Below, piece after piece: positions 4,414 through 64,000 of a stretch of 64,000 nt of DNA. The notes under the pieces are model-generated. The model was not told where the DNA came from. It ran no database searches and saw nothing but the letters and a program-made list of their open reading frames with translations. Position 1 is the stretch's first letter. The number at the start of each line of letters is the position of its first letter. Both the position numbers and the translations under genes were made by a program. The DNA comes from an uncultured Candidatus Peribacteria bacterium (GTDB lineage Bacteria; Patescibacteriota; Gracilibacteria; UBA1369; UBA12473), in NCBI GenBank assembly GCA_964436935.1, contig CAYTES010000001.1, forward strand, positions 7,066-71,065, given 5' to 3'.

Positions 4414-4478
4414 GATCAATGCATTAAAAATGAAGCGCCCTAGAAACAAAAGGTGTTTTTCTTTAAAATGAAAGTCCC

Positions 4479-6236
4479 ATGGAAAACCACTACTTCTTTC
4501 TCATTAAAACCGCATGGGCGTTTGCAAGGCATCATCGCACCACAATGGTAGTGGTGTATGTGATGTTCGTGATAGCCAATCTTATCGCCATGAGCGAGCC
4601 GTTGGTTTTGGGATTATTTTTAAATAAGCTCCAAGAGGGAGGAGATGATCTGCTTCATATGTCGATTCTCTATCTGGGATTTTATGCCAGTTTGGAATTT
4701 TTCTTTTGGATTTTCCATGGAAATGCCCGTGTAATGGAACGACAAATCGGATTCGATATCGTACGAAATTTCAAAGAACAATTATTCAAAGAAGTCGCGA
4801 GTCTTCCGCTCAAATGGCACAAAGACCACCATTCGGGAGGAGTGGTGAGCCGCATCGAAAAAGCAACCAAGGCATTAAACGGATTCACACAAGACAGCTA
4901 TATATTCATCGAAACGATTGTACGTTTTATCGTCTGCATCGTGGCCTTTTTCCTCATCTTACCCGCCTCGGGATTCATGGCCTTGGGGATGGGAATCCTT
5001 ATTGTAATCACCATTTTTAAATTTGATCGCATTTTGATCAGCACCCTAAAAGCCGTGAATGAAAAAATTCATCTTTCGGATTCCACCTTCTATGACTATA
5101 TGAGCAACATCATGACCGTCATCACCTTACGGTTGGAAAATCTCGCCCGAAGCGAATTGGTGAACAAAATAAATGCAATTTTCCCCATCTGGAGAAAAAA
5201 TATCAGGGTGAATGAAGTGAAATGGTTTTCGATCAGCATGGGCCTGGCACTCACCAACTTTGCCATCCTCATTTTTTATATTTATTCCGAAACCAAAGGA
5301 GGTGGGGTCATCATGATCGGGAGCTTCATCGCATTGTATCAATACACGTCCCGCTTCATCGAGGTCTTCTTCGGACTTGCATGGAAATACGAACAATTGG
5401 TTTGGTACAGCACCGATTTGAAGTCGGTAAATCCCATTCGAAAAACATTTGAAAAAATGGAAAAAAAAGATCAAACCAAACCTCCAACGGACTGGGATAC
5501 CATCACGATCAAAAATCTTTATTTCCGCTATGAAGATGAAAAAAACGAAAAACACAATCTGGACAATATCAACCTAGAACTCAAGCGAAGCCTCAAAATC
5601 GCCTTCATCGGCGAAAGTGGAAGCGGAAAAAGCACGTTGATGACCCTACTTCGCGGACTGGAAAATCCAAATAAGGTAAAAGTCCTGATCGATGGAAAAC
5701 GCTTTGAAACCCTCAAGTCAATTTCCAACTGGGTCACGTTGATCCCCCAAGAAGCCGAGATTTTTGAAAATACGATTGAATACAATGTGACGGCAGGAGT
5801 GGCCCATAAAAAAACGGAAGTGGTGAAAGCGTGCGAACTGGCCTGTTTCAATAAAGTACTCAAGCGGCTTCCCAAAGGAATAAAAACCAACATCAAAGAA
5901 AAAGGGGTTAACCTTTCCGGCGGCGAAAAACAGCGCTTGGCATTGGCGCGAGGACTGTTTGCGGGCCAAAACAGCAGCATTCTGATTCTCGACGAACCCA
6001 CCAGCAGTATGGATACGAAAAACGAACTCGAAATTTACGACAATTTATTTCATGAATTCAAAGATCGTTGCATTGTGGCGTCGGTACATCGACTGCACTT
6101 ACTCAAAAAATTCGATGTGATCTATCTATTTGATGGAGGAAAATTGATAGAACGCGGCAATTTTGAACTATTAAAAAAGAACGAAATGTTTCAAAAAATC
6201 TGGAAGATTTATGAAAAAAGTTTAAAGTCAGAGTAA
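4479..6236 (+). CDS. ABC exporter, fused permease/ATPase (MsbA-type architecture)
   Basis: N-terminal six-TM-like hydrophobic half. Walker A GESGSGKST, signature LSGGEKQRLALARGL, Walker B ILILDEPTS. Confidence 0.9.
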   Translation: MENHYFFLIKTAWAFARHHRTTMVVVYVMFVIANLIAMSEPLVLGLFLNKLQEGGDDLLHMSILYLGFYASLEFFFWIFHGNARVMERQIGFDIVRNFKEQLFKEVASLPLKWHKDHHSGGVVSRIEKATKALNGFTQDSYIFIETIVRFIVCIVAFFLILPASGFMALGMGILIVITIFKFDRILISTLKAVNEKIHLSDSTFYDYMSNIMTVITLRLENLARSELVNKINAIFPIWRKNIRVNEVKWFSISMGLALTNFAILIFYIYSETKGGGVIMIGSFIALYQYTSRFIEVFFGLAWKYEQLVWYSTDLKSVNPIRKTFEKMEKKDQTKPPTDWDTITIKNLYFRYEDEKNEKHNLDNINLELKRSLKIAFIGESGSGKSTLMTLLRGLENPNKVKVLIDGKRFETLKSISNWVTLIPQEAEIFENTIEYNVTAGVAHKKTEVVKACELACFNKVLKRLPKGIKTNIKEKGVNLSGGEKQRLALARGLFAGQNSSILILDEPTSSMDTKNELEIYDNLFHEFKDRCIVASVHRLHLLKKFDVIYLFDGGKLIERGNFELLKKNEMFQKIWKIYEKSLKSE

Positions 6237-40294: not shown

Positions 40295-43200
40295 TTAGAA
40301 AATAGCTCGAATCAACTCAACTAAGCTGGCATACAAACCCTGTTTTTCAAAGGAAATTTCTTCCGAGGATTCAAACAGTTCATTGGTTTCTTTCCAGTCC
40401 TGAACCCGCTGAATGATGGTCGAGGTTTCCGCACGATTGAGGCCGTTATAAAGGTCGGCATTTCCCGTGTCTCCCTGTCCCTCAATAATTCCGGCGGCGT
40501 AGAGTGCCTCCGCAGCATGCCAATAGGCATCATCCGGAGCCACATCGGGGAAGTATCCTTCGAAAACAGTGGGAGGTTCCATGCCTTCCTTCTGTCCCAA
40601 TTCGAGCATCAATTGCATCATTTCCGCGCGATTCACCATTTGACTCAGATCGGAATAGGCAATGGAAAGATTCAATGCTTTGGCTTTATTTTCATACGGA
40701 GTCCACCACACCTCTCCTCCTTCTCCAGCGACTTCGTAATCAAAAGCGAACAACGCCATTTTCAAGACTTCGGCCCGTCTTGTGCCGTCACTGGGGCCAA
40801 AATTGTAGGTTCGATTGCCGTTTCCATCTTTGTATCCTCCCAAAATGCCTTCCTGGGCAGATTCGATCACATGACCGGCATACCAGTATTCTGCAGGAGA
40901 CGCATTGTAGGCATCATTAAAAATATACGGAACGTCATGAAACTCATACCCATACTCAAATTTAGACTGCTCCGCTTGCTCCAAAAGTTTTTGCAAATCA
41001 TCAATATAAGTTTGCAACTCAGCCTTAGAGGTTTCCTCATTGAGGGTATTGTTGATCGATTCCCATTGATCCGCGATTTCAGCGGCCAAATCCTCGTCAG
41101 GATAAGGCAGATTGGCAAACAATTCCTTAAACTCGGAAAGTGTTTCCAATTCTTGCGTGTTTTCATTCTCAATTTGTTCAAAATCCAGCGCCGTCACTTG
41201 TTCAAAAACAAGATTATTATTCTCCAACAACGCTTCACCTTGTGCTAAATTCTGAAAATTTTCCATCAGGCGATTGGTGAGTTTTTCCGTTAAATCGATC
41301 TCTAAAAACTTAACCAACTCTTCCATCACCGCCGCTTTAACCACGCGCACAATGTCTTCCAAAAGACTTTCCGTGATGCGGCTCACCAACTCATCCGCGA
41401 TATTTTGACCATATATTTGTTGCAAACGATTGCAGTTTCGGCCACAGTCTGGCCCGGATCCATAAAACTCATTTGAGTCATCAACCAAAATGGCGAACAT
41501 GGCCCAAACAGATTCCCATTCTCGATCCGTTAAAGTTAAACCGGATTGATGCCCGTTCACATAAAGAGAAATTTTTTCAATCTTCGGATCGATGAAGGAC
41601 GCCCATTTGTCCAATTGATTCCAAAAATGTTCCATAGATTTTTCAAGTTCATAAGGTTCACCATTAAAATCATCAAGCAAAGACTGCATGTCTTCTAACA
41701 TTTCTCTAGCATCAGGCATGACCTTAGAAATTTCGTTGAGAAAATTTTGATTCTTTTTATCCAATCGGCCATTTAAAACATCGACGGCAGCTTCAATAAC
41801 CTCAATTTCGTCTTGAAGGACAACCAGCTCTTCCTCGATCCATTGCGATTGAACGAGAGAGTTTTGCAATCGGTGAAGTGGCCCAAGGGCCTCCCACAAA
41901 AGACTGTTGTCTTGGCTATGAAAAGCAAAATCTTCACGGGTCCAGCCCAAATCGGCCCACATTTCATTCAATTCTTCGTCAAAATAGGAGCGTACCGTTT
42001 GACGTTCTTCGGAATCCGTCAGTTCATCAATCGTGCTAAAAGTAGGCATCTCCTCGATGCCGGATTCAAGCGCATCGCCAGAAATTAAAAACTCATCATA
42101 AAGTTGATAAAATTCATCCAGCCAATCTAAGGCATCCGTCAAAGCCCTCTCATCCTGGGATTCCAACTCAATATTCATGGCGTCCAAATGGACGAATAAC
42201 TTATTTTTCTCACGTTTCCATTCTAAAATATTGGTCACATTATCATAAAAGCTCAATTTTCCTTCGACGATATCCCGTTTCATTTGATAAACATCTGTTT
42301 TTCTCAAAATCAATACAGCGGCATCAAGATGATCCCACGTTAAATCTTTTTTATTTTTAAGATAAGTGAGCAGATCATTTTGAGCCTCAAGTTCGTTTGA
42401 AAACGCCTCCGACTCCTCTTGAACATAAAGCAAGAGCTCCTCCAAGGCAGCAATATCTTCCTCAAATTCACCCTTCACCTCATCGAGAAGTTCTGGCGAC
42501 AATCCTTCTTGCTCCAACCCCATCTCATCTTGTTCAACAAACTCGATCCGATCTTCAAAATCTTTAATTTTGCGTTCAATGCGTTTAGAGAATTGTCCAA
42601 AATATTTCAAATCCCGTTCCTTCCAGCGTAACCCTTCTTTCATCTCACTCAATTGTCGACCGGCCTCTTCGGGGTCGATAAGGTTACCATCATTTTGCTG
42701 ATCACAGGAGCCACTTTGAACGTTGCCTTTATCATCCTTACAGATTTCGCACCAGACTCCATCGCCATCCTCATCATTCCATTCACAGCGATTTTGATCG
42801 GGCTCTTCACAATACTGCGTGGTATAATTCCCTTTTTCATCGTAACAAGTTTTACACTCAAGACCCTGTCGGTCGACATAATAATCGCAGCGTCCTTGTT
42901 CAGAATCATCGCCATCATCCCAATCACCCTCTTGATCATCACAAGTATTTTTCAATACCGTCCCATCCGGCTTGGTGCAAGTTTCGCACCAAAAATAGCC
43001 ACCGGTATTTTCATACTCACAATGCGCATTGAGATCAAAATACTCCTCATTGGAATTATACGAATCATCATCAGCGCTATCTTGCCAACACGAACGATTG
43101 GTTACAGTTCCGTTGTTGTCATAACATTTCATGCACTGCAAACCATCCTGCCAAAAATAGTCACAAGAATTGGAACTCATGGATCCGCTTGAACTAGTGC

Positions 43201-45148
43201 TGGTCATCCAACACGAATCATTTTGTTTCACACCTTTATCGTCATAACACACGTTGCATTGCAAACCGTCGGCCTCATAACTTTCACATTGGGCAGAACC
43301 GTAGTAATTAGTTGTCGCGGTGCCATCGGCCGTGATGGTTGTCGTACCAACGATCGTACTGGTGTTGTTTGAAGAAATGGTACCACTGGTCGAACCTGTT
43401 CCCGAACCCGTATTGGTTGAAGTATTTGAAGTATTGTTGCTGGTGGTGGTTCCGCTGGTCGTGCTGGTTGACCCGGTTCCACTCGTAATTAAGGTGGTTC
43501 CCGTTGAAGTATTGTTGTTGGTGGTTCCCGTGTTGTTTGATCCCGTTGTGGCCGTACACGTATTTTTAATTTGCGTTCCATCTTGATAGGAACATTTTTG
43601 ACATTGAGTTCCATCGGAATTTTGCAAAAATTCACAATAAGCGTTTTTGGTGAAGTAATCATCGGGATATTCCGAGGCGTTGGAATAACACCATTCGGTA
43701 CGCAAATAACCCGAGGGGTCATAAAAGGAGGCGCACTCCATGTCGTTCGATTTTCTAAAATACACATTTTTGATGGTGTAACTGTAGCTGACGCTGCAAT
43801 AGGAACTTGATGTTTTTGAGCCCTGAGAACAGGTGGTGCACACCATGTCATTCACACTATTGTTCGTGACGCACTGTTGCGTTGAGGTTGTTGCTGAGGT
43901 TGAGCCCGTGGAGCCGGTAGTTCCACTGGAGGTTTCCGGTTCATACGCGTCACACATTTTCCCGATTCCATCCCCATCCGTATCTTTTTGATCGCTATTC
44001 GCGACTTCAATACAATTATCAGTATTATCCATCACTCCATCTTTATCCGTATCGGTGGTGGAAGATCCCGTAATAGTGACTAAAATGGAATTGCTATAGC
44101 CTAATCCACACTCCTCATTAGTACAGGTACGAATCATCCACGATCCGTTCATTTTAGGCGTTATCCCCGAAAGAGTTTGAATTCCGGTGGACGTTGTGGA
44201 CGTGAGTGTCGTGAGAGTAGTCACCGTACTTGCCGGAGAAGGACTGATAACCTGAATTTTAACATTGATCGGAACCCCGTTCGTGGGAGAGGCGCAGGTA
44301 TAAGTCAATTTAATACTTTCCGAAAAAGTATAGCTTGATTTGTCGGTAGCCAAATAAAATCCGGTGCAGGCCGGATAGGGAGTGGAATCACATTTGTCTC
44401 CTATTTTGTCACCATCGGTATCTTTTTGATCACTATTCGAGGCGTACATACAGTTATCAGTAGCATCCAAAATTCCATCGTAATCAAAATCCGCAGGGCA
44501 ATCCGTGGCACAAACCGTCGAATTTTCACCCGTTTGACAAATGTTATTTCCACAACTCGCCGTATTTTGGGTACTGACGCGATGCGCCGAAACCAAAGCC
44601 TGTTGCGCGGTCAAATCGCAAGCACCTTCATATTTAAATACAGAATAATCATGATCACTTCGACAATGATAGGTTGCCCCCAAATCGTCCACATACAGGC
44701 GCATATTGGTATTCACGTTACTTACCGCCGAAACATTGATATTGACCGACACATTTTTTCCCTCTTTACTCACTCCGGAAATGGTTAACGTTTGCGCACC
44801 AATCGCATCCGCGGCACCGATGGCAATGCCTCCGCTGCATGTATTGCGATTTTCCCATAATCCAGCGTCATTCAAATGACCGCATTCGGTATAGGGTGTT
44901 GGAAAATCTCCGGTCCAAATGGAAATTCCATAATTCAAATTACCCGGAGAATTGCCACCGGGATTGGTCGAAGAAACACTCGTGATTTTAGACAATTGCA
45001 AGAGTTGAACTCCTTCACTGCTGGCAATCACATCCGTTTTCAAAAAAGAACCATATGATCCACCCAATAAATCCCATCCGGTTAGGGTAGCCGCCACAAG
45101 TCCGGCAACCATTAAAAATTTAGGGTTCAATGAAGAAAAAAATTTCAC
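40295..45148 (-). CDS. giant secreted surface protein: TSP3-type Ca-binding repeats, four-Cys repeat array, coiled-coil region, C-terminal SLH domains
   Basis: The N-terminal hydrophobic signal is followed by these parts:
- DxDxDGxxDxxDNC...DQKDTDGDxIGxxCD twice (about 44387-44488 and 43949-44053)
- seven C-x9-11-C-x2-C-x11-12-C units
- T/S/G/N-rich linkers
- a long acidic helical region
- C-terminal FHDVP...GGYKDG...RAEVLKM and YFPDVA...GIIEG...RAETSTI (SLH-like, about 40403-40942). Confidence 0.85.
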   Translation of the reverse strand: MKFFSSLNPKFLMVAGLVAATLTGWDLLGGSYGSFLKTDVIASSEGVQLLQLSKITSVSSTNPGGNSPGNLNYGISIWTGDFPTPYTECGHLNDAGLWENRNTCSGGIAIGAADAIGAQTLTISGVSKEGKNVSVNINVSAVSNVNTNMRLYVDDLGATYHCRSDHDYSVFKYEGACDLTAQQALVSAHRVSTQNTASCGNNICQTGENSTVCATDCPADFDYDGILDATDNCMYASNSDQKDTDGDKIGDKCDSTPYPACTGFYLATDKSSYTFSESIKLTYTCASPTNGVPINVKIQVISPSPASTVTTLTTLTSTTSTGIQTLSGITPKMNGSWMIRTCTNEECGLGYSNSILVTITGSSTTDTDKDGVMDNTDNCIEVANSDQKDTDGDGIGKMCDAYEPETSSGTTGSTGSTSATTSTQQCVTNNSVNDMVCTTCSQGSKTSSSYCSVSYSYTIKNVYFRKSNDMECASFYDPSGYLRTEWCYSNASEYPDDYFTKNAYCEFLQNSDGTQCQKCSYQDGTQIKNTCTATTGSNNTGTTNNNTSTGTTLITSGTGSTSTTSGTTTSNNTSNTSTNTGSGTGSTSGTISSNNTSTIVGTTTITADGTATTNYYGSAQCESYEADGLQCNVCYDDKGVKQNDSCWMTSTSSSGSMSSNSCDYFWQDGLQCMKCYDNNGTVTNRSCWQDSADDDSYNSNEEYFDLNAHCEYENTGGYFWCETCTKPDGTVLKNTCDDQEGDWDDGDDSEQGRCDYYVDRQGLECKTCYDEKGNYTTQYCEEPDQNRCEWNDEDGDGVWCEICKDDKGNVQSGSCDQQNDGNLIDPEEAGRQLSEMKEGLRWKERDLKYFGQFSKRIERKIKDFEDRIEFVEQDEMGLEQEGLSPELLDEVKGEFEEDIAALEELLLYVQEESEAFSNELEAQNDLLTYLKNKKDLTWDHLDAAVLILRKTDVYQMKRDIVEGKLSFYDNVTNILEWKREKNKLFVHLDAMNIELESQDERALTDALDWLDEFYQLYDEFLISGDALESGIEEMPTFSTIDELTDSEERQTVRSYFDEELNEMWADLGWTREDFAFHSQDNSLLWEALGPLHRLQNSLVQSQWIEEELVVLQDEIEVIEAAVDVLNGRLDKKNQNFLNEISKVMPDAREMLEDMQSLLDDFNGEPYELEKSMEHFWNQLDKWASFIDPKIEKISLYVNGHQSGLTLTDREWESVWAMFAILVDDSNEFYGSGPDCGRNCNRLQQIYGQNIADELVSRITESLLEDIVRVVKAAVMEELVKFLEIDLTEKLTNRLMENFQNLAQGEALLENNNLVFEQVTALDFEQIENENTQELETLSEFKELFANLPYPDEDLAAEIADQWESINNTLNEETSKAELQTYIDDLQKLLEQAEQSKFEYGYEFHDVPYIFNDAYNASPAEYWYAGHVIESAQEGILGGYKDGNGNRTYNFGPSDGTRRAEVLKMALFAFDYEVAGEGGEVWWTPYENKAKALNLSIAYSDLSQMVNRAEMMQLMLELGQKEGMEPPTVFEGYFPDVAPDDAYWHAAEALYAAGIIEGQGDTGNADLYNGLNRAETSTIIQRVQDWKETNELFESSEEISFEKQGLYASLVELIRAIF

Positions 45149-58562: not shown

Positions 58563-58763
58563 ATGGCGAACGAAGAAAATAGCAATGCAGGACTTACCGC
58601 ATTGATCGTTATTTTAGTAGGGGTCATCATCATAGGGGCCTTCTATTTCCTCAAACCACAGCCCAGCGGAAACGATGAAAATAACGATGACGTGAACATC
58701 ACCATCCCGGATACGGAAGAAGACATTTTACCGAATACGGAAAATGAAAATACATATAGATAA
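58563..58763 (+). CDS. small single-pass membrane protein
   Basis: 66 aa with one clear TM helix LTALIVILVGVIIIGAFYF and an acidic tail. Confidence 0.4.
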   Translation: MANEENSNAGLTALIVILVGVIIIGAFYFLKPQPSGNDENNDDVNITIPDTEEDILPNTENENTYR

Positions 58764-58772
58764 AAAACTCTA

Positions 58773-59402
58773 TTATTGCTGAAATCTCAAATCCGCACGT
58801 CGACGACGGCGTTGCCACAGCATGAGTCGATGATAAACACGTTTCAAGGATTCCCTCAAATCCAAAGGAATTTCATCGAAAGGAACATCGGCCAAGGCAA
58901 GAGGTTTTCCTGCAAATTCATGCAACGTATTCAAAAAAGCAGGCCCCTCTTTAGGATCGGAAAGAATTTCTCGAAGGGGGCCACTGATCTCTTCAGCAAA
59001 TTGACGCTCCAGTTCCTGCCGAACTTGTTCTTTTAATTTGGTAGGATCTGAACTTGCAAAATGAACTTCAGCCAAAAGCTCATCCCAGTGTCTTGAAATA
59101 AGTTGAGGCTCGGAAAATCGTTCAAACCAGGCCAATAAAGCCAACTGAAAAGCCATTTTATCTTTAAAGGGCGGTTCGTAAGGCAAGGACTCTCCTCCTC
59201 GTTGAGGACCCTCCGCGGGAGGTTCTTGATCCGAGTTGAGCAATTTAGATTCGCCATTCCAATACCAACCATCCTCAGAATGAGGCAACTCGTCCTCTTG
59301 CGTTGTTCCGGATTCAGAAAACTCCTTAACCTTAACCCGATCCCGATAAACCAAAGGATCGATGTCGCTCCCTAGTTTTTCAGAAGAATACCCTGAAACC
59401 AT
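58773..59402 (-). CDS. hypothetical protein
   Basis: 209-aa ORF. No motif recognised. Confidence 0.55.
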   Translation of the reverse strand: MVSGYSSEKLGSDIDPLVYRDRVKVKEFSESGTTQEDELPHSEDGWYWNGESKLLNSDQEPPAEGPQRGGESLPYEPPFKDKMAFQLALLAWFERFSEPQLISRHWDELLAEVHFASSDPTKLKEQVRQELERQFAEEISGPLREILSDPKEGPAFLNTLHEFAGKPLALADVPFDEIPLDLRESLKRVYHRLMLWQRRRRRADLRFQQ

Positions 59403-59592
59403 GATGCAACGGATTAATAAAATAATATTTAATAATTACTCTAGCACTATTTAAAACGAAGCCAAATCAATTTTGTTACAAAAGACATAAAAACCCATTT
59501 GTGCAATCAATAATAAAAAAAATGTAATAAATAAAGCCCATCATGATTATACTAGTATCAAGACGTTCTCTTTTATATCTTGCGTACCCCTT

Positions 59593-60162
59593 ATGATCCC
59601 CGAACAAGAGCAAGTGGCGATTGATGCCGCTAAAGAGAATAAATGCGCCTTCATAACCTTATATGATCAAAATTTCCATTGTATCTATGGATTTCTTCTG
59701 GCCCGGGGATTAAACCGCGAAACCGCAGAAGATTTAACGTCTGAAACCTTCTCACTCGCCCTCAAAAACATCGATCGCTATGTGTACACGGGGAAACCCT
59801 TCAAAGCTTGGCTCTATCGAATAGCCATCAATGAAATGAACAAACATTTCAAACGTCAACAACGGGACAAAAAAATCCTTATTATGGAAAAAAATCACTC
59901 CGAAATGACAACCGAAGCGGCAGATCAAGAATTGAAGCGAAAAGAAGAAGAGTTCGTACACGGCAAAAATAGGGCCGTACTACAAGACGCCTTAAAACAT
60001 CTCAAACCTAAAGAACAAGATCTCATTTCATTACGCTATTTCGAAGATCTTTCTTATAAAGAGATCGGCGACATCATGGGCATGCGCCTAAGCCATGTAG
60101 GAGTCAAACTCAACCGAACCCTAAAGCGTCTTTCCAAGCTCTGCACTTTTTACCCTTTATGA
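59593..60162 (+). CDS. ECF-type RNA polymerase sigma factor
   Basis: Region 2 (ETAEDLTSETFSLAL...FKAWLYRIAINEMNKHFKR) and region 4 HTH (LISLRYFEDLSYKEIGDIMGMRLSHVGVKLNRTLKRL). Confidence 0.9.
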   Translation: MIPEQEQVAIDAAKENKCAFITLYDQNFHCIYGFLLARGLNRETAEDLTSETFSLALKNIDRYVYTGKPFKAWLYRIAINEMNKHFKRQQRDKKILIMEKNHSEMTTEAADQELKRKEEEFVHGKNRAVLQDALKHLKPKEQDLISLRYFEDLSYKEIGDIMGMRLSHVGVKLNRTLKRLSKLCTFYPL

Positions 60163-60222
60163 ATCTAAAAATCAGGTTCCCTTCTTCAATTGTTTTTTAC
60201 CCACTCTAAACACGTGCCGATC

Positions 60223-63200
60223 ATGAATCCTCTGGAATTCTATCTCAAACAACTCGCTGCCATGGTCAAACGTAAAGCCAGACCACAATTCAAAGACGAA
60301 CTACGTCAAAAATTAATGCATCAAGCACGAGAATTGAATGAAAAACCAGCTTCTCGATGGAAAGAAGCCTGGAAAAACTTCCGAAACAGCATTTTCCAAG
60401 GACATCGTTGGGTTTCCGTGACCGCCGCAATGCTCATTTTGGTCATTGGAACACTGGCCATTAATCCCGGTGGATTCAAAAACAACCCCGTCCAGCTGGT
60501 CAATCTGGCTGAGGCCCAGGATTTTTATACCCTGACTCCCTCCCTTTCGGACACCAACGGAATTTCGGAAGAAACCACCTTCAAACTGGCCAGCAAAGAA
60601 AATCTCGACGTGGAAGAAGTGAAGCAAAATCTTTCCATCTCTCCCGAAATCGCCTTCGAGATTGACAAAACAGCAGGCAATACACTGGAAATTAAACCAC
60701 TGGGAACACTCGAACCCGGAACCGTCTACCAATTCAAATTGGAAGGCCAAAATTTAAAAAATAATCCTTTCCCCAAAGAATTCAGCTGGTCTTATGAGGT
60801 GTCCGAAGAATTCAAAATTACCGGAACCCTCCCAAAGAATCATGAAAATTATATTTATATAAACACCGGAATCGAAATCTCCTTCAATAGAAATGGCGTA
60901 GAGATTGAAAATTTCAAAAATCATTTTTCCATCACTCCGGCCGTGGAAGGAACGTTCGACGTCAAAGGAAAAACAGGGATTTTTATACCTAAAACGGAAG
61001 ACGGATTGAAGCCCTCAACCATTTATAAGGTCGCTATAAAATCGGGACTCGGAATAAAAAATAGCGAAAAGATATTACAAGAAAATTTTAACTTTGAATT
61101 CAAAACCCAAGAGGAGGGAAATGTCGAGGGAGAAGAAATTAGTTTTGATAAAGAAATTTATGATTTCAATCCAAACCTCAATCCAAACTTAGGAGTAAAC
61201 TATTATCGGATCGACACCTACAATGACGAGCAAAACGTCGAAGTCTCAATAAATCTGTACCGCTACCCTACGGGCGAAGCTTATCTTGAAGCATTAAGGG
61301 GTTATAGGGAAATAAGTCCGCAATGGGCCTACTACACAAACCGTATTTATGGCGATATTCCGACCGACGGGCTGGAAAAAGTACTGGAAATCCCGAAAAT
61401 AAACGCCGCCCTAAATCCCGCAAACTATGGACGTTGGATGTCGCTGCCTCAATCCTTAAACGAAGGATATTATCTCATCGAAATGCAAAAAGGGAACCTG
61501 AAAGATCAATCGTTTGTACAGGTATCCCCCCTTGCAAGCTATATTGCTTTCAGCAAAGAAAAATCCATCATTTGGGTCAACAACACAGCAACCAAAGGAC
61601 CGGTTGAAAATGCGACGGTGGAAATTCTCGACCATGATCTCGAAGCAAAAACAAATAATGAAGGAGTTGCTTCATTTGAAGAACTAAATTCCAAAATTAA
61701 ATTGCCCGAAGAAGACCAAACGGCACTTTATCTCAAAATCACTTCGGGTGAAAAAAACGTCTATTACGAAACGGTACTCAATCCAACAACTCCCAACGAA
61801 ACCAATGACACATGGCAGGTCCTTCAAACCGAACGAGAAGTCTATCGTCCGGATGATACGGTATTCTATTGGGGATTCTTACAGGGACGGGAGAAGCCGC
61901 TTCAAAAAAACGCGAAAATGGTGATCACTCCAAGTTATCTGACCTATGCAAAAGAAATAGCAGGTGAACAAGAAAAAAACACCATCCTCCATGAAGAAAA
62001 TATCGTGCTCAAAGATGGCGAAGCATTCGAAGGAAAGGTAAACCTGAAAAAATTCAATCCGGGATATTACATGATGTACATCATTCAAGACGATAATATT
62101 GTAAGTCGTACCGGATTTTCCGTAAGCAATTATATTAAACCGGCTTACCAAATTGTGGTGGACCCCGAAAAAACTGTACTTTTGGAAGGAGAATCCACAC
62201 CGGTAAAAATCACGGCACGTTTTTTTGAAGGAACCCCCGTGGCTCATACGAACTTACGATACGAAATGTGGGGAGAAACCCCTCAAGTGCTCACCACGGA
62301 CGAAAAAGGAGAAATCATTACCACCATGACCGCCAAAGTCGACTGTCCGGACATCAATTATTGTAGCTGGGAAAACTATCAGGGAATTTACGTGACTCCG
62401 GTACAAGAAGAATTGGCCGACATTCAAGGACAAACCACCGTACGAATCATAAGGAGCAAAGCGCATGCCAATCCTATTGAACTTTCGCACAAAGCCCTTT
62501 CGATGACGGTTCATACCGTGGATTTGGAAAAAATCAACCACAACAGTTCCAACTGGAAAGAAAGTAGTGACGTGGAAGCGGGCCCCTCGGCAAATACCCC
62601 CATAGAAGTGAGTATCACCCGTGTGGATTGGATTCAAATCGAAACCGGAGAATACTACGACAACATCGACAAGCAAATTCATAAAACGTATCAAAGCGTT
62701 CAAGAAGAAATACCCATGCCCGCCATTCAAGGAAAAACAGATGCAGAAGGGAAATTCAACTACAATCTGACGCTTGATCCGGCACACGACTATCGAATGG
62801 TGATAAAAATCACGGATGCGGAAGGTGCTTTTTATACTGAAAATAGTTGGTTGAGTAAAAAAACCCCTGATGGAAATACTGAATTTTTAATGCTCGAAAC
62901 CAATAAGGGCGGGACAACTGAGCGAGAAGTATTCAAACAAGGAGAGGAAGTTCAAATCTCAATGATCGGAGTAAGTGAAACCACGTCGAATCATTATCTT
63001 TTCTTACAAACACAGGATGGAATTTTGAACGAAAAAATAAGCACCGAGCCTCGATATGAATTCAAATTAAAAAAAGAACATATTCCGAATCTATGGATAA
63101 GCGGGGTCCAGTTTGATGGGACCTACTATCAAAGTGCCGGAGAAAAAAATATTGAATATGACGCGGAAGAGGAACGCTTGGACATCGAAATGCATAGCGA

Positions 63201-64000
63201 CAAAAAAGAGTATGAACCTGGAGAAAAAGTAACCCTGGACTTCAAAGTACAGGAAAAAAAGAGTGGAAAAGGCGTGCCGGCTCAAGTGAACTTGTCACTT
63301 GTCGACGAAGCCTACTACGAACTCTATCCGGAAAGCTTCAGGGATCCACTCGGATTTCTATATAACGATGTTTCCGGGAATGTAGAATTCAAATACGCCT
63401 CTCAAGTGAACCCGATGAACACTCAAGAAACGGGGGGCATGGGCGGCTGTTTCATAGCCGGGACTTTAATAAAGATGGCCGACGGAAGTACAAAAAAAAT
63501 TGAAAACATTCAAAAAGGAGATATCATCTTGACGCGAAAAGACGAATGGAGCAATAAAAAAATAGACGCCGAAGTGACGCAAACTTTTGAAAAAAAGGTT
63601 GGAGAATATCTGTGGATCAATGAAAATCTTGGAATCACGGAGGAACATATCCTCTTTGTGAATGGGCAATGGCAGTTAGCCGGTGAAATTAAAATCGGAG
63701 ATACTCTCATCAATGAATCCGGCAAGTCGGTAACAATCACATCGATTGAACAAAAAAGAAAATCCATAATGGTCTATAACTTCACGGTGGCCGACCATCA
63801 CACCTATTTCGCCAACGGAATTTATGTCCACAACGATAAAGGGGGAACACGGGAAGATTTCAGGGACACCGCAGTCTTCTCAGTGGTGTCCACCGATGCA
63901 AACGGATGGGGAACCTTCACCTTCACCTTACCGGACAATATCACTTCCTGGCAGGTTAGTGCCGGGGCGGTACGAGGAGGAGAAAAAGTTCAAGGCGGAT
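60223..64000 (+). CDS. membrane-anchored alpha-2-macroglobulin-like protein (3' end beyond window); NOT in supplied ORF track
   Basis: My own translation from ATG 60223 gives 1259 codons with no stop to the window edge. There is one TM helix (WVSVTAAMLILVIGTLAI, about 60409-60462). MG-domain-type motifs are present (EVYRPDDTVFYWGF, KEYEPGEKVTLDFKV, AQVNLSLVDEAYYEL), along with the A2M-domain signature FRDTAVFSVVSTDANGWGTFTFTLPDNITSWQV. All listed minus-strand ORFs in this span are antisense to it. Confidence 0.85.
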   Translation, partial: MNPLEFYLKQLAAMVKRKARPQFKDELRQKLMHQARELNEKPASRWKEAWKNFRNSIFQGHRWVSVTAAMLILVIGTLAINPGGFKNNPVQLVNLAEAQDFYTLTPSLSDTNGISEETTFKLASKENLDVEEVKQNLSISPEIAFEIDKTAGNTLEIKPLGTLEPGTVYQFKLEGQNLKNNPFPKEFSWSYEVSEEFKITGTLPKNHENYIYINTGIEISFNRNGVEIENFKNHFSITPAVEGTFDVKGKTGIFIPKTEDGLKPSTIYKVAIKSGLGIKNSEKILQENFNFEFKTQEEGNVEGEEISFDKEIYDFNPNLNPNLGVNYYRIDTYNDEQNVEVSINLYRYPTGEAYLEALRGYREISPQWAYYTNRIYGDIPTDGLEKVLEIPKINAALNPANYGRWMSLPQSLNEGYYLIEMQKGNLKDQSFVQVSPLASYIAFSKEKSIIWVNNTATKGPVENATVEILDHDLEAKTNNEGVASFEELNSKIKLPEEDQTALYLKITSGEKNVYYETVLNPTTPNETNDTWQVLQTEREVYRPDDTVFYWGFLQGREKPLQKNAKMVITPSYLTYAKEIAGEQEKNTILHEENIVLKDGEAFEGKVNLKKFNPGYYMMYIIQDDNIVSRTGFSVSNYIKPAYQIVVDPEKTVLLEGESTPVKITARFFEGTPVAHTNLRYEMWGETPQVLTTDEKGEIITTMTAKVDCPDINYCSWENYQGIYVTPVQEELADIQGQTTVRIIRSKAHANPIELSHKALSMTVHTVDLEKINHNSSNWKESSDVEAGPSANTPIEVSITRVDWIQIETGEYYDNIDKQIHKTYQSVQEEIPMPAIQGKTDAEGKFNYNLTLDPAHDYRMVIKITDAEGAFYTENSWLSKKTPDGNTEFLMLETNKGGTTEREVFKQGEEVQISMIGVSETTSNHYLFLQTQDGILNEKISTEPRYEFKLKKEHIPNLWISGVQFDGTYYQSAGEKNIEYDAEEERLDIEMHSDKKEYEPGEKVTLDFKVQEKKSGKGVPAQVNLSLVDEAYYELYPESFRDPLGFLYNDVSGNVEFKYASQVNPMNTQETGGMGGCFIAGTLIKMADGSTKKIENIQKGDIILTRKDEWSNKKIDAEVTQTFEKKVGEYLWINENLGITEEHILFVNGQWQLAGEIKIGDTLINESGKSVTITSIEQKRKSIMVYNFTVADHHTYFANGIYVHNDKGGTREDFRDTAVFSVVSTDANGWGTFTFTLPDNITSWQVSAGAVRGGEKVQGG
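63448..63834 (+). other. Hint / bacterial intein-like (BIL) domain embedded in the alpha-2-macroglobulin-like CDS
   Basis: 129 codons: Cys1 block A CFIAGTLIKMADGSTKKIENIQKGDIIL, block B GITEEHILF (TxxH), blocks F/G VYNFTVADHHTYFANGIYVHN. The next residue is Asp (DKGG). There is no endonuclease insert. Confidence 0.8.

Follow-up and report, generated by a model that had tools for sequence, protein, structure and literature searches.

In anti-sigma factors of the RsgI type, the ectodomain has to undergo autoproteolysis before regulated intramembrane proteolysis (RIP) can occur, the self-cleavage of the SEAL domain preceding the intramembrane cut by RasP/RseP (PMC10556640, PMC10328401). Here we describe a gene pair at the end of a 64,000-nt stretch of contig CAYTES010000001.1 (this whole stretch is called the window), which comprises the gene for an extracytoplasmic function (ECF) sigma factor and, directly downstream, the gene for a very large membrane protein related to alpha-2-macroglobulin (A2M) that contains an intein-like Hint domain. 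Judged from the genes alone, the pair resembles SigI/RsgI of Bacillus and Clostridium in combining a putative single-pass, N-in anti-sigma factor beside the sigma gene with a predicted enzyme-independent self-cleaving module and a large sensing ectodomain. However, the RsgI module is juxtamembrane and SEA-like, while that of the window protein is a Hint domain located about 1,000 residues from the membrane within an A2M fold. The sigma factor, too, is of the ECF type and not of the SigI type, and Pfam searches yielded neither SEAL nor RsgI_N matches in the window protein, its cytoplasmic tail included, the likeness to RsgI being functional only.

Sequential processing has also been described for FecR, where a series of cleavages ends in a cut by RseP (PMC8144685). 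The window protein would share with FecR and FoxR the stepwise processing of an ECF regulator, but it contains no FecR domain and differs in its ectodomain, in its chemistry module (Hint) and in the group of organisms, which are monoderm-like bacteria of the Candidate Phyla Radiation (CPR). The periplasmic self-cleavage of FoxR is an N-O acyl rearrangement, chemically of the same kind as the step at Cys1 of Hint domains, and the S41 protease Prc also has a part in the processing.

The ectodomain has its own set of relatives. Bacterial A2Ms (ECAM/YfhM of E. coli and the A2M of Salmonella; structures 4ZIQ and 4U4J) have the same order of macroglobulin (MG) domains, bait-region domain (BRD), A2M domain and bMG10-like C-terminus, and are likewise anchored on the outer face of the membrane; distant Hint-bearing relatives of the window protein even retain the CxEQ motif and a PBP1-type neighbour. 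Unlike the bacterial A2Ms, the window protein has neither CxEQ nor a match to a TED model, is held by a transmembrane (TM) helix with a tail and not by a lipoprotein signal, has a sigma factor and not PbpC as its partner, and carries a Hint domain in the bait. The complement proteins C3, C4 and C5 share the superfamily fold of the ectodomain. Where A2M has its bait, they possess an extra domain (anaphylatoxin, ANA) and a processing site, and removal of this domain triggers a conformational change; C3/C4/C5, however, are cut by external convertases or furin, while the domain inserted in the window protein could remove itself. This inserted domain resembles bacterial intein-like (BIL) domains (2LWY; BIL2 of Tetrahymena BUBL, 6TMM) in its size of about 130-150 aa, in Cys1, TxxH and the terminal HN, in the non-nucleophilic residue at +1 and in the lack of an endonuclease, but its host context, an A2M bait, is new. 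Tetrahymena BIL2, which is activated by zinc, conjugates its N-extein to lysine amines (PMC8616854). Finally, protection against host proteases has been proposed as the role of A2M-domain membrane proteins in the CPR bacterium Vampirococcus, in a paper that mentions neither Hint domains nor sigma factors (PMC8080830).

By its gene content, the system described here would work like ECF sigma/single-pass anti-sigma pairs with autoproteolytic ectodomains, but it lies outside the ZAS/ASD, RsgI and FecR families, whose defining sequence features it lacks. We read it as an operon of two genes, for an ECF sigma factor and its anti-sigma factor, that is probably autoregulated and belongs to a Peregrinibacteria-like (Patescibacteria/CPR) bacterium, and in which processing by the Hint domain would trigger the release of sigma, and assign to this reading as a whole a probability of about 0.6.

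Organization and integrity of the gene pair

The features of the pair within the window, with residue numbers referring to the large protein, are as follows.

59523-59551 (+): promoter-like motif TGTAAT-N18-TTATA, a candidate autoregulated ECF-type promoter, 42 nt upstream of the sigma ATG
59593-60162 (+): ECF (group IV) sigma-70 family sigma factor, 189 aa (Sigma70_r2, Sigma70_r4_2, TIGR02937)
60223-64000 (+): 5' part of the gene for the protein with tail, TM helix, A2M-like body and Hint domain, running off the window end (translation and public contigs)
60223-60408 (+): cytoplasmic tail, residues 1-62, proposed sigma-binding module (charge, co-occurrence with sigma)
60283-60339 (+): P.FK..LR..L motif, tail residues 21-39 (alignment of 20 tails)
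60409-60468 (+): single TM helix, about residues 63-82 (Kyte-Doolittle)
60808-61107 (+): bacterial Ig-like domain Big_5, residues 196-295 (Pfam, E 2.6e-13)
61552-61911 (+): macroglobulin-type domains, residues 444-563 (weak bMG3 and MG2 Pfam matches below the cut-offs)
62917-63324 (+): bait-region domain A2M_BRD, residues 899-1034 (Pfam, 43.2 bits, cut-off 22.7)
63370-63447 (+): flexible Gly-rich linker ending in GG, residues 1050-1075 (pLDDT <50; Gly1075 in 50/50)
63448-63834 (+): BIL-type Hint domain, residues 1076-1204 (PT-HINT, E 1e-19; 2LWY; Foldseek)
63835-63999 (+): segment DKGG..R.DF.DTA after the Hint domain, followed by the beginning of the A2M (MG7-type) domain; residues 1205-1259, truncated at the window end (Pfam A2M)

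The track of open reading frames (ORFs) contains only short antisense ORFs at 60300-63800. The initial annotation had nevertheless proposed a frame open for 1259 codons from ATG 60223 on the forward strand to the window edge (63999/64000), and translation confirms it; it had also been right in attributing the omission to the lack of a stop codon inside the window, since the track skips ORFs that run off the end of the sequence. A 71-kb ENA scaffold and public contigs, including LCJI01000019 of GCA_000999445.1, match the window over 59593-64000 with 100% identity, and the identical sigma protein with the same gene pair is present in several other assemblies (among them LCJI01000019 and AMFJ01011091). 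On the identical public contigs the complete gene is 5,535 nt long, encodes 1,844 aa and ends in a stop codon, the window holding its 5' 3,778 nt. As this 1,844-aa frame is intact in several independent assemblies, with no in-frame stop or frameshift, the long ORF is real. The agreement with the N-termini of homologues (MIEKYLSKL.. and MTNIEKYLNQL..) supports ATG 60223 as the start.

The two genes are separated by 60 nt (60163-60222). No terminator-like site was found on the forward strand of this gap, and no convincing terminator was found 3' of the large gene on locus L001.

The Hint domain and the macroglobulin-like ectodomain

Residues 1076-1204 (129 aa), located between the A2M_BRD and A2M domains, match PT-HINT with 71.6 bits (cut-off 27.7, E 1e-19). 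The borders of the domain are GG|CFIAGT at the start and YVHN|DKGG at the end; Cys1 is C1076, block B contributes T1139 and H1142, the C-terminal pair is H1203-N1204, and the +1 residue is Asp1205. The A2M-like body had been recognized in the initial annotation and is borne out by domain and fold matches, while the Hint domain within it had not been identified; the guess of an autoprocessing ectodomain made there was correct in substance, as a BIL/Hint domain sits at the bait. The closest solved relative by sequence is the BIL domain of C. thermocellum (2LWY, E 8e-11 over the full length). Residues 890-1259 were modelled with AlphaFold at a mean pLDDT of 70; in this model the Hint domain is folded, with linkers of pLDDT <50 on either side, and in a Foldseek search with this model 6TMM (Tetrahymena BIL2) and 2LWY came first (TM(target) 0.75-0.85), followed by mini-inteins and then by C4, C5, CD109, TEP1 and the A2Ms of E. 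coli and Salmonella. From its sequence and predicted structure, this is an A-type BIL/PT-HINT domain. A classical (class 1) intein was ruled out, since the +1 residue is Asp1205 and not Cys, Ser or Thr, and a recent horizontal insertion was ruled out by the GC content and the third-position GC content (GC3) of the Hint-coding DNA, both of which match those of the host gene.

The position of the domain was established by three observations. Residues 1209-1262 align to residues 718-769 of Xenopus A2M, which we take, from A2M numbering, to lie just after the bait; the Hint-less relatives P0006 and P0007 have a linker of about 50 residues at exactly the Hint site; and the flanking domains are BRD and A2M. 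Thus, the Hint domain sits at the bait. The site is filled by a folded domain, and the low-confidence linkers that flank it are about 25 and 13 residues long; these linkers might serve as bait nonetheless.

On the complete C-terminus the A2M domain, starting at residue 1216, scores 32.8 bits (cut-off 21), and a weak bMG10 match is found at the end of the 1,844-aa protein. By its domains and modelled fold the ectodomain is a member of the A2M superfamily. The CxEQ thioester motif is absent from all 1,844 aa and the TED model (TED_complement) has no match there, hence the window protein lacks a thioester of the CxEQ-in-TED kind. This motif is found in distant Hint-bearing relatives (loci L015, L066-L071 and L074). 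In particular, L015 (3534-12396) and L016 (1875-10737) encode more canonical A2Ms of 2,131 aa with the CTEQ thioester, a TED and the same Hint domain at the bait, adjoining a gene for a PBP1-type transglycosylase/transpeptidase (BiPBP_C); the association of A2M with PbpC is the classical bacterial pairing. Since such canonical A2Ms carry the Hint domain, its insertion is not limited to thioester-less or sigma-linked forms.

Conservation of the domain is high. In all 50 full-length members C1076, T1139, H1142, H1203, N1204, Gly-1 (G1075) and Lys+2 are invariant, and Gly is found at +3 in 46 of them. The A2M-first loci were recovered with two Hint peptide patterns, an ascertainment that inflates the conservation at residues 1070-1079 and 1193-1201, while T1139, H1142, H1203 and N1204 lie outside the patterns. 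Mean pairwise column identity among the 50 proteins is the highest in the Hint domain (0.46), compared with 0.25-0.28 in the MG and BRD regions and 0.19 in the tail, and the post-Hint DKGG..R.DF.DTA region coincides in part with those 40-aa stretches that are best conserved in the family alignment. At the +1 position the same proteins have Asp (26), Glu (10), Ala (7), Gln (6) or Ser (1); in the larger set Cys, Ser or Thr is found in 9 of 118 proteins, nearly all others having Asp, Glu, Gln or Ala. The domain looks catalytically competent, old and fixed.

A competent domain may also be a neutral one. The BIL/Hint domain could be a long-persisting splicing element that excises itself after export and re-ligates its flanks without a +1 nucleophile, with no role in signalling; the mature form would then be an ordinary A2M-like protein of one chain, its bait being short and Gly-rich (..GGMGG-DKGG..). 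The pairing of sigma and anti-sigma factor could hold even so. It would agree with this that all splicing-type catalytic residues are kept and that 2LWY is the closest solved relative, the C. thermocellum domain reportedly being able to ligate without nucleophilic side chains. Endonuclease-free mini-inteins can persist, as their imprecise loss is harmful, and purifying selection on an intein in a fast-evolving host would mimic higher conservation. However, Cys, Ser and Thr are as rare at +1 as given above, and no homing endonuclease is present. The length is fixed at 129 aa, and the flanking G-1, K+2 (50/50) and G+3 (46/50) are invariant or nearly so within a bait that is normally hypervariable. 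Moreover, the domain is found at the same site in all five relatives of 26-43% identity and in hundreds of cluster representatives, and this site is the sole position of the A2M fold where a cut triggers a conformational change. We therefore consider neutral splicing rather unlikely, while a Hint domain that is active after export and processes the ectodomain at the bait without an outside protease is likely on the sequence evidence.

The best Pfam model being PT-HINT, and an NCBI homologue bearing the name 'polymorphic toxin-type HINT domain-containing protein', one could also think of a polymorphic toxin, in which autoproteolysis by PT-HINT frees a C-terminal effector. This reading was rejected as very improbable: the region after the Hint domain is not a variable toxin but the conserved macroglobulin half, from A2M/MG7 to bMG10, and no gene, of the immunity type or otherwise, is conserved downstream.

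The family is large. When 1.84 billion cluster representatives were searched exhaustively with the BRD-Hint-MG7 fragment, at least 374 matched at E up to 1e-30; almost every one of the best 150 measures 1.7-1.9 kaa and has one continuous match over BRD, Hint and MG7. Another homologue search with the same fragment had returned short Hint-only proteins only. The 121 full-length representatives include 72 whose tail measures at least 40 aa, 12 in which CxEQ occurs past the Hint domain, and 99 whose Hint domain is exactly 129 aa long. As far as literature searches reach, this Hint-bearing macroglobulin-like family appears to be undescribed: no report was found in the literature on Hint or BIL domains within A2M or its bait, and no relevant one joining A2M with anti-sigma or ECF factors, or on ECF anti-sigma factors in Peregrinibacteria.

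The sigma factor, the cytoplasmic tail and their co-occurrence

The product of the first gene (189 aa) contains the Pfam domains Sigma70_r2 and Sigma70_r4_2 and matches TIGR02937 with 95.7 bits (cut-off 42.9), while none of the equivalog or subfamily models (BldN, SigM, SigW and others) reaches its cut-off. By its size and domains it is an ECF (group IV) sigma-70 factor, with orthologues of 43-57% identity.

The tail of the second protein (residues 1-62) has 15 Lys/Arg against 6 Asp/Glu residues (net charge +9), no Cys, and His only in positions 33 and 61. The best 19-residue Kyte-Doolittle window covers residues 63-81 (mean 1.99), and the segment after the helix is net acidic. A basic tail before the TM helix and an acidic segment after it indicate the N-in, C-out topology; a short cytoplasmic N-terminus (~60 aa), a single TM helix and a large A2M-like ectodomain, as drawn in the initial annotation, agree with charge, hydropathy, Pfam and Foldseek alike. 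The alignment of 20 tails has two invariant residues, F23 and L27, within the P.FK..LR..L segment, which is predicted to form an amphipathic helix. A second tail type, VDK..SK.YLW.YIQ (more fully, ..NDRKVDK..VDKSK.YLW.YIQ.K..), is found in loci L033, L038, L039, L052 and L057, all five of them sigma-linked, and in proteins P0062-P0084; in 30 of the 121 family representatives the tail reaches at least 40 aa but lacks the first motif, the listed examples belonging to the second type. Some 15-20 residues past the TM helix (60490-60525, residues ~90-101) there is a conserved juxtamembrane motif, L(V/I)N(V/L)AEA(Q/K)D(Y/F)Y, whose core is AXA-like. It is common to sigma-linked and unlinked relatives, and may be where the first Ig-like domain begins or where the protein is processed.

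The genes of three full-length homologues of 34-41% identity (P0002-P0004) are each directly preceded by one for an orthologous ECF sigma factor (43-50% identity), with a spacing of 23 nt, an overlap of 4 nt and an overlap of 1 nt. A scan of one genome per GTDB species yielded 56 loci with Hint-bearing A2M-like genes, mostly in records labelled as Patescibacteria (Peregrini-, Peri-, Gracili-, Magasaniki-, Portnoy-, Shapiro- and Roizman-bacteria). Seven loci (L037, L041, L048, L049, L055, L058, L068) come from metagenome-assembled genome records labelled 'uncultured Gammaproteobacteria' or 'Pseudomonadales', which may be binning mislabels or host-associated bins. In 28 distinct loci, from several Patescibacteria lineages, the A2M-like gene is immediately preceded by a sigma ORF of the same strand; usually the two overlap or are less than 30 nt apart. 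When the search was started from sigma, all four orthologues looked up (one of them on the same contig as L023) were followed, at most 57 nt on, by a 1.8-kaa gene of the Big_5/A2M_BRD/PT-HINT/A2M type, with different flanking genes. The pair is thus kept in 28 A2M-first and 4/4 sigma-first loci, while its other neighbours vary. The thioester-bearing loci L069, L070 and L074 are also sigma-linked and have a tail with the F..L..h motif.

The tail follows the sigma gene. All 28 sigma-linked genes encode at least 41 aa before the TM helix, while 16 of the 21 sigma-less loci with enough upstream sequence have at most 34 aa there, and the F..L..h motif is present in 23 of 28 linked and in none of 21 unlinked genes (Fisher p ~3e-9, with kinship ignored). 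In a neighbour-joining tree of the 50 full-length proteins, genes lacking tail and sigma are nested among linked ones at no fewer than five places, which indicates that the two have been gained or lost together repeatedly. Both the co-occurrence and the repeated joint gain or loss speak for the anti-sigma function suggested in the initial annotation, and sigma-tail binding is proposed from genomic co-occurrence; on this basis, it is likely that the tail binds and sequesters sigma.

Alternatively, sigma could be a dedicated activator of the A2M-like gene only, with the tail serving insertion, localization or partner binding, and sigma being controlled elsewhere or by its own transcription. Some ECF groups do lack anti-sigma factors, the tail has no homology to any anti-sigma domain, and five sigma-less relatives have N-terminal extensions of at least 40 aa, though of a different sequence type. 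Yet such a role of the tail would leave its repeated gain and loss together with sigma without explanation, as well as the pairing of two different tail types with upstream sigma genes. The overlapping or abutting genes, moreover, suggest translational coupling, and no other neighbour is conserved. Hence an activator with an unrelated tail seems quite unlikely, and sequestration by the tail is preferred.

Upstream of the sigma genes we found a conserved element, TGTAA(T/G)-N17-19-(C/A)(G/T)TTATA. In the 64-kb window TGTAAK-N17-19-TTATA has a single match, the one at 59523-59551, where 0.11 are expected. A loose version of the motif lies just upstream of sigma in 18 of the 28 distinct loci, and elsewhere it has 14 matches in 1.09 Mb. 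As the match in the window is single, the motif is not the general promoter type of this genome, and a housekeeping promoter was ruled out. Its form recalls the ECF promoters of Bacillus (TGTAAC/TGAAAC-N16-17-CGTA). The motif fits the autoregulation usual for ECF operons, and by sequence the operon is probably autoregulated.

Further copies of the motif were observed in related loci. In L019 a second strong copy (TGTAAGAAAAGTCGGGAGGCAGACTTATA; 4423-4451, forward strand) lies 20 nt 5' of a gene for a 162-aa multi-pass membrane protein (4471-4959), which is thus a candidate further member of the regulon. In the three related loci L032 (9923), L040 (9920) and L041 (9947, all forward strand), a second TGTAA(T/C)-N-CGTTAT copy is found within the tail-coding region of the A2M-like gene, where it could be due to chance or coding constraint, or be an internal promoter. 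In the distant loci L032, L040, L053 and L058 the CGTTATA -10-like element ends only ~5-8 nt before the sigma ATG, which suggests leaderless transcripts or ones with a very short leader.

Proposed release of sigma, and the surrounding genes

The proposed mechanism has three steps. First, the tail would hold sigma at the membrane. Second, the Hint domain would perform an N-S acyl shift at Gly1075|Cys1076 and cyclization of Asn1204, whereby the ectodomain would be cut or re-ligated at the bait without an external protease; such a built-in trigger would stand in for the cleavage of the bait in A2M or for the removal of ANA from C3. Third, and this is the weakest step, the two-chain or rearranged ectodomain would become a substrate of extracytoplasmic proteases and then of intramembrane proteolysis; the rearrangement might need an extra stimulus, such as attack by a host-cell protease or pulling. 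In the end the tail would be destroyed and sigma freed to transcribe its own operon. The third step is reasonable given the RsgI and FecR precedents. By analogy with them, it may be that Hint processing, alone or together with protease attack or mechanical load, alters the macroglobulin body, whereupon the membrane-proximal part would be degraded step by step and intramembrane cleavage and the release of sigma would follow, but this part is tentative and less likely than not.

Candidate proteases for this step are an S41 C-terminal processing protease and PrsW. Genes for a PrsW-family protease and a Peptidase_S41 protein (CtpB-like, with PDZ) are convergent just downstream of the operon in one subclade (L011:14618-16568; L012:13593-15517; L013:6531-8549, immediately adjacent; L025:17822-19758), and RsiW, an anti-sigma factor of B. 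subtilis, is a substrate of PrsW and of tail-specific proteases. The new C-terminus made by the Hint domain would be a natural entry point for an S41 protease, an argument to which we give little weight. By tblastn, neither gene was found in the window or in L001.

Several points weigh against the model as a whole. The Hint cut is about 1,000 residues away from the membrane and cannot by itself yield the short stub required by site-2 proteases. Hint-bearing genes exist without sigma, and the domain is therefore not specific to signalling; moreover, a BIL domain can splice cleanly and leave an ordinary single-chain protein. The tail does not have the HxxxCxxC zinc motif of the ZAS class, whose absence had been remarked in the initial annotation and is plain from the lack of Cys. 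Known anti-sigma domains were not found in the tail by Pfam (five single tails and 20 aligned tails, E up to 1-10), and a PDB profile search with the tails gave chance matches only. The tail-sigma association statistics are not phylogenetically corrected, and the ascertainment of loci by Hint patterns inflates part of the conservation, as described above. Most loci, like the window, lack the genes for PrsW and the S41 protease, whose proximity elsewhere may reflect lineage synteny. Finally, the -10-like element in the window is TTATAC, not the CGT typical of ECF promoters.

As Hint-bearing genes without tail and sigma are common, the Hint domain is best seen as a part of the macroglobulin machine, with sigma and tail as an optional reporter of its state. 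A related, speculative and unlikely possibility, raised by analogy with Tetrahymena BIL2 (PMC8616854), is that the thioester formed at Gly1075-Cys1076 serves as the warhead of a trap: the anchored N-terminal 1,075 residues would be transferred to a lysine or other amine of an attacking host protein, replacing CxEQ, a thioester lost from most of the family, and in sigma-linked forms this would free sigma. If true, it would be a covalent capture-and-report receptor on the surface of a CPR episymbiont.

Patescibacteria (CPR) have tiny genomes with few regulators, and many are found fixed to host cells. In the present case, one surface protein and its dedicated sigma factor take up ~6 kb of a genome of this kind. 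If the release model is true, the pair would represent a new class of ECF sensors with a macroglobulin-type ectodomain, a further bacterial transmembrane signalling protein with an autoprocessing step of its own, and the first described case in which an intein-like domain is used where the A2M/complement fold has its trigger, the bait. What may surprise specialists is that such a domain has become fixed in the bait of hundreds of macroglobulin-like proteins, and its coupling to sigma. The system bears on how uncultured CPR bacteria sense host attack or contact, and could supply protein engineering with a self-cleaving or self-conjugating module of fixed size.

Two further ORFs lie upstream of the operon: one of 209 aa without a Pfam match (58773-59402, reverse strand), divergent from the sigma gene, and beside it one of 66 aa with a single TM helix (58563-58763, forward strand). 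Both are present on the contigs with the identical sigma protein and are not kept beside sigma in other lineages. The window contains a second very large ORF (40295-45112, reverse strand; 1,605 aa), and the Pfam summary of its ORFs lists, as other large surface proteins, two with SLH domains and one with Beta_propel. Besides such SLH-domain surface proteins, the genome of the window carries chromosomal genes of the ordinary kind.

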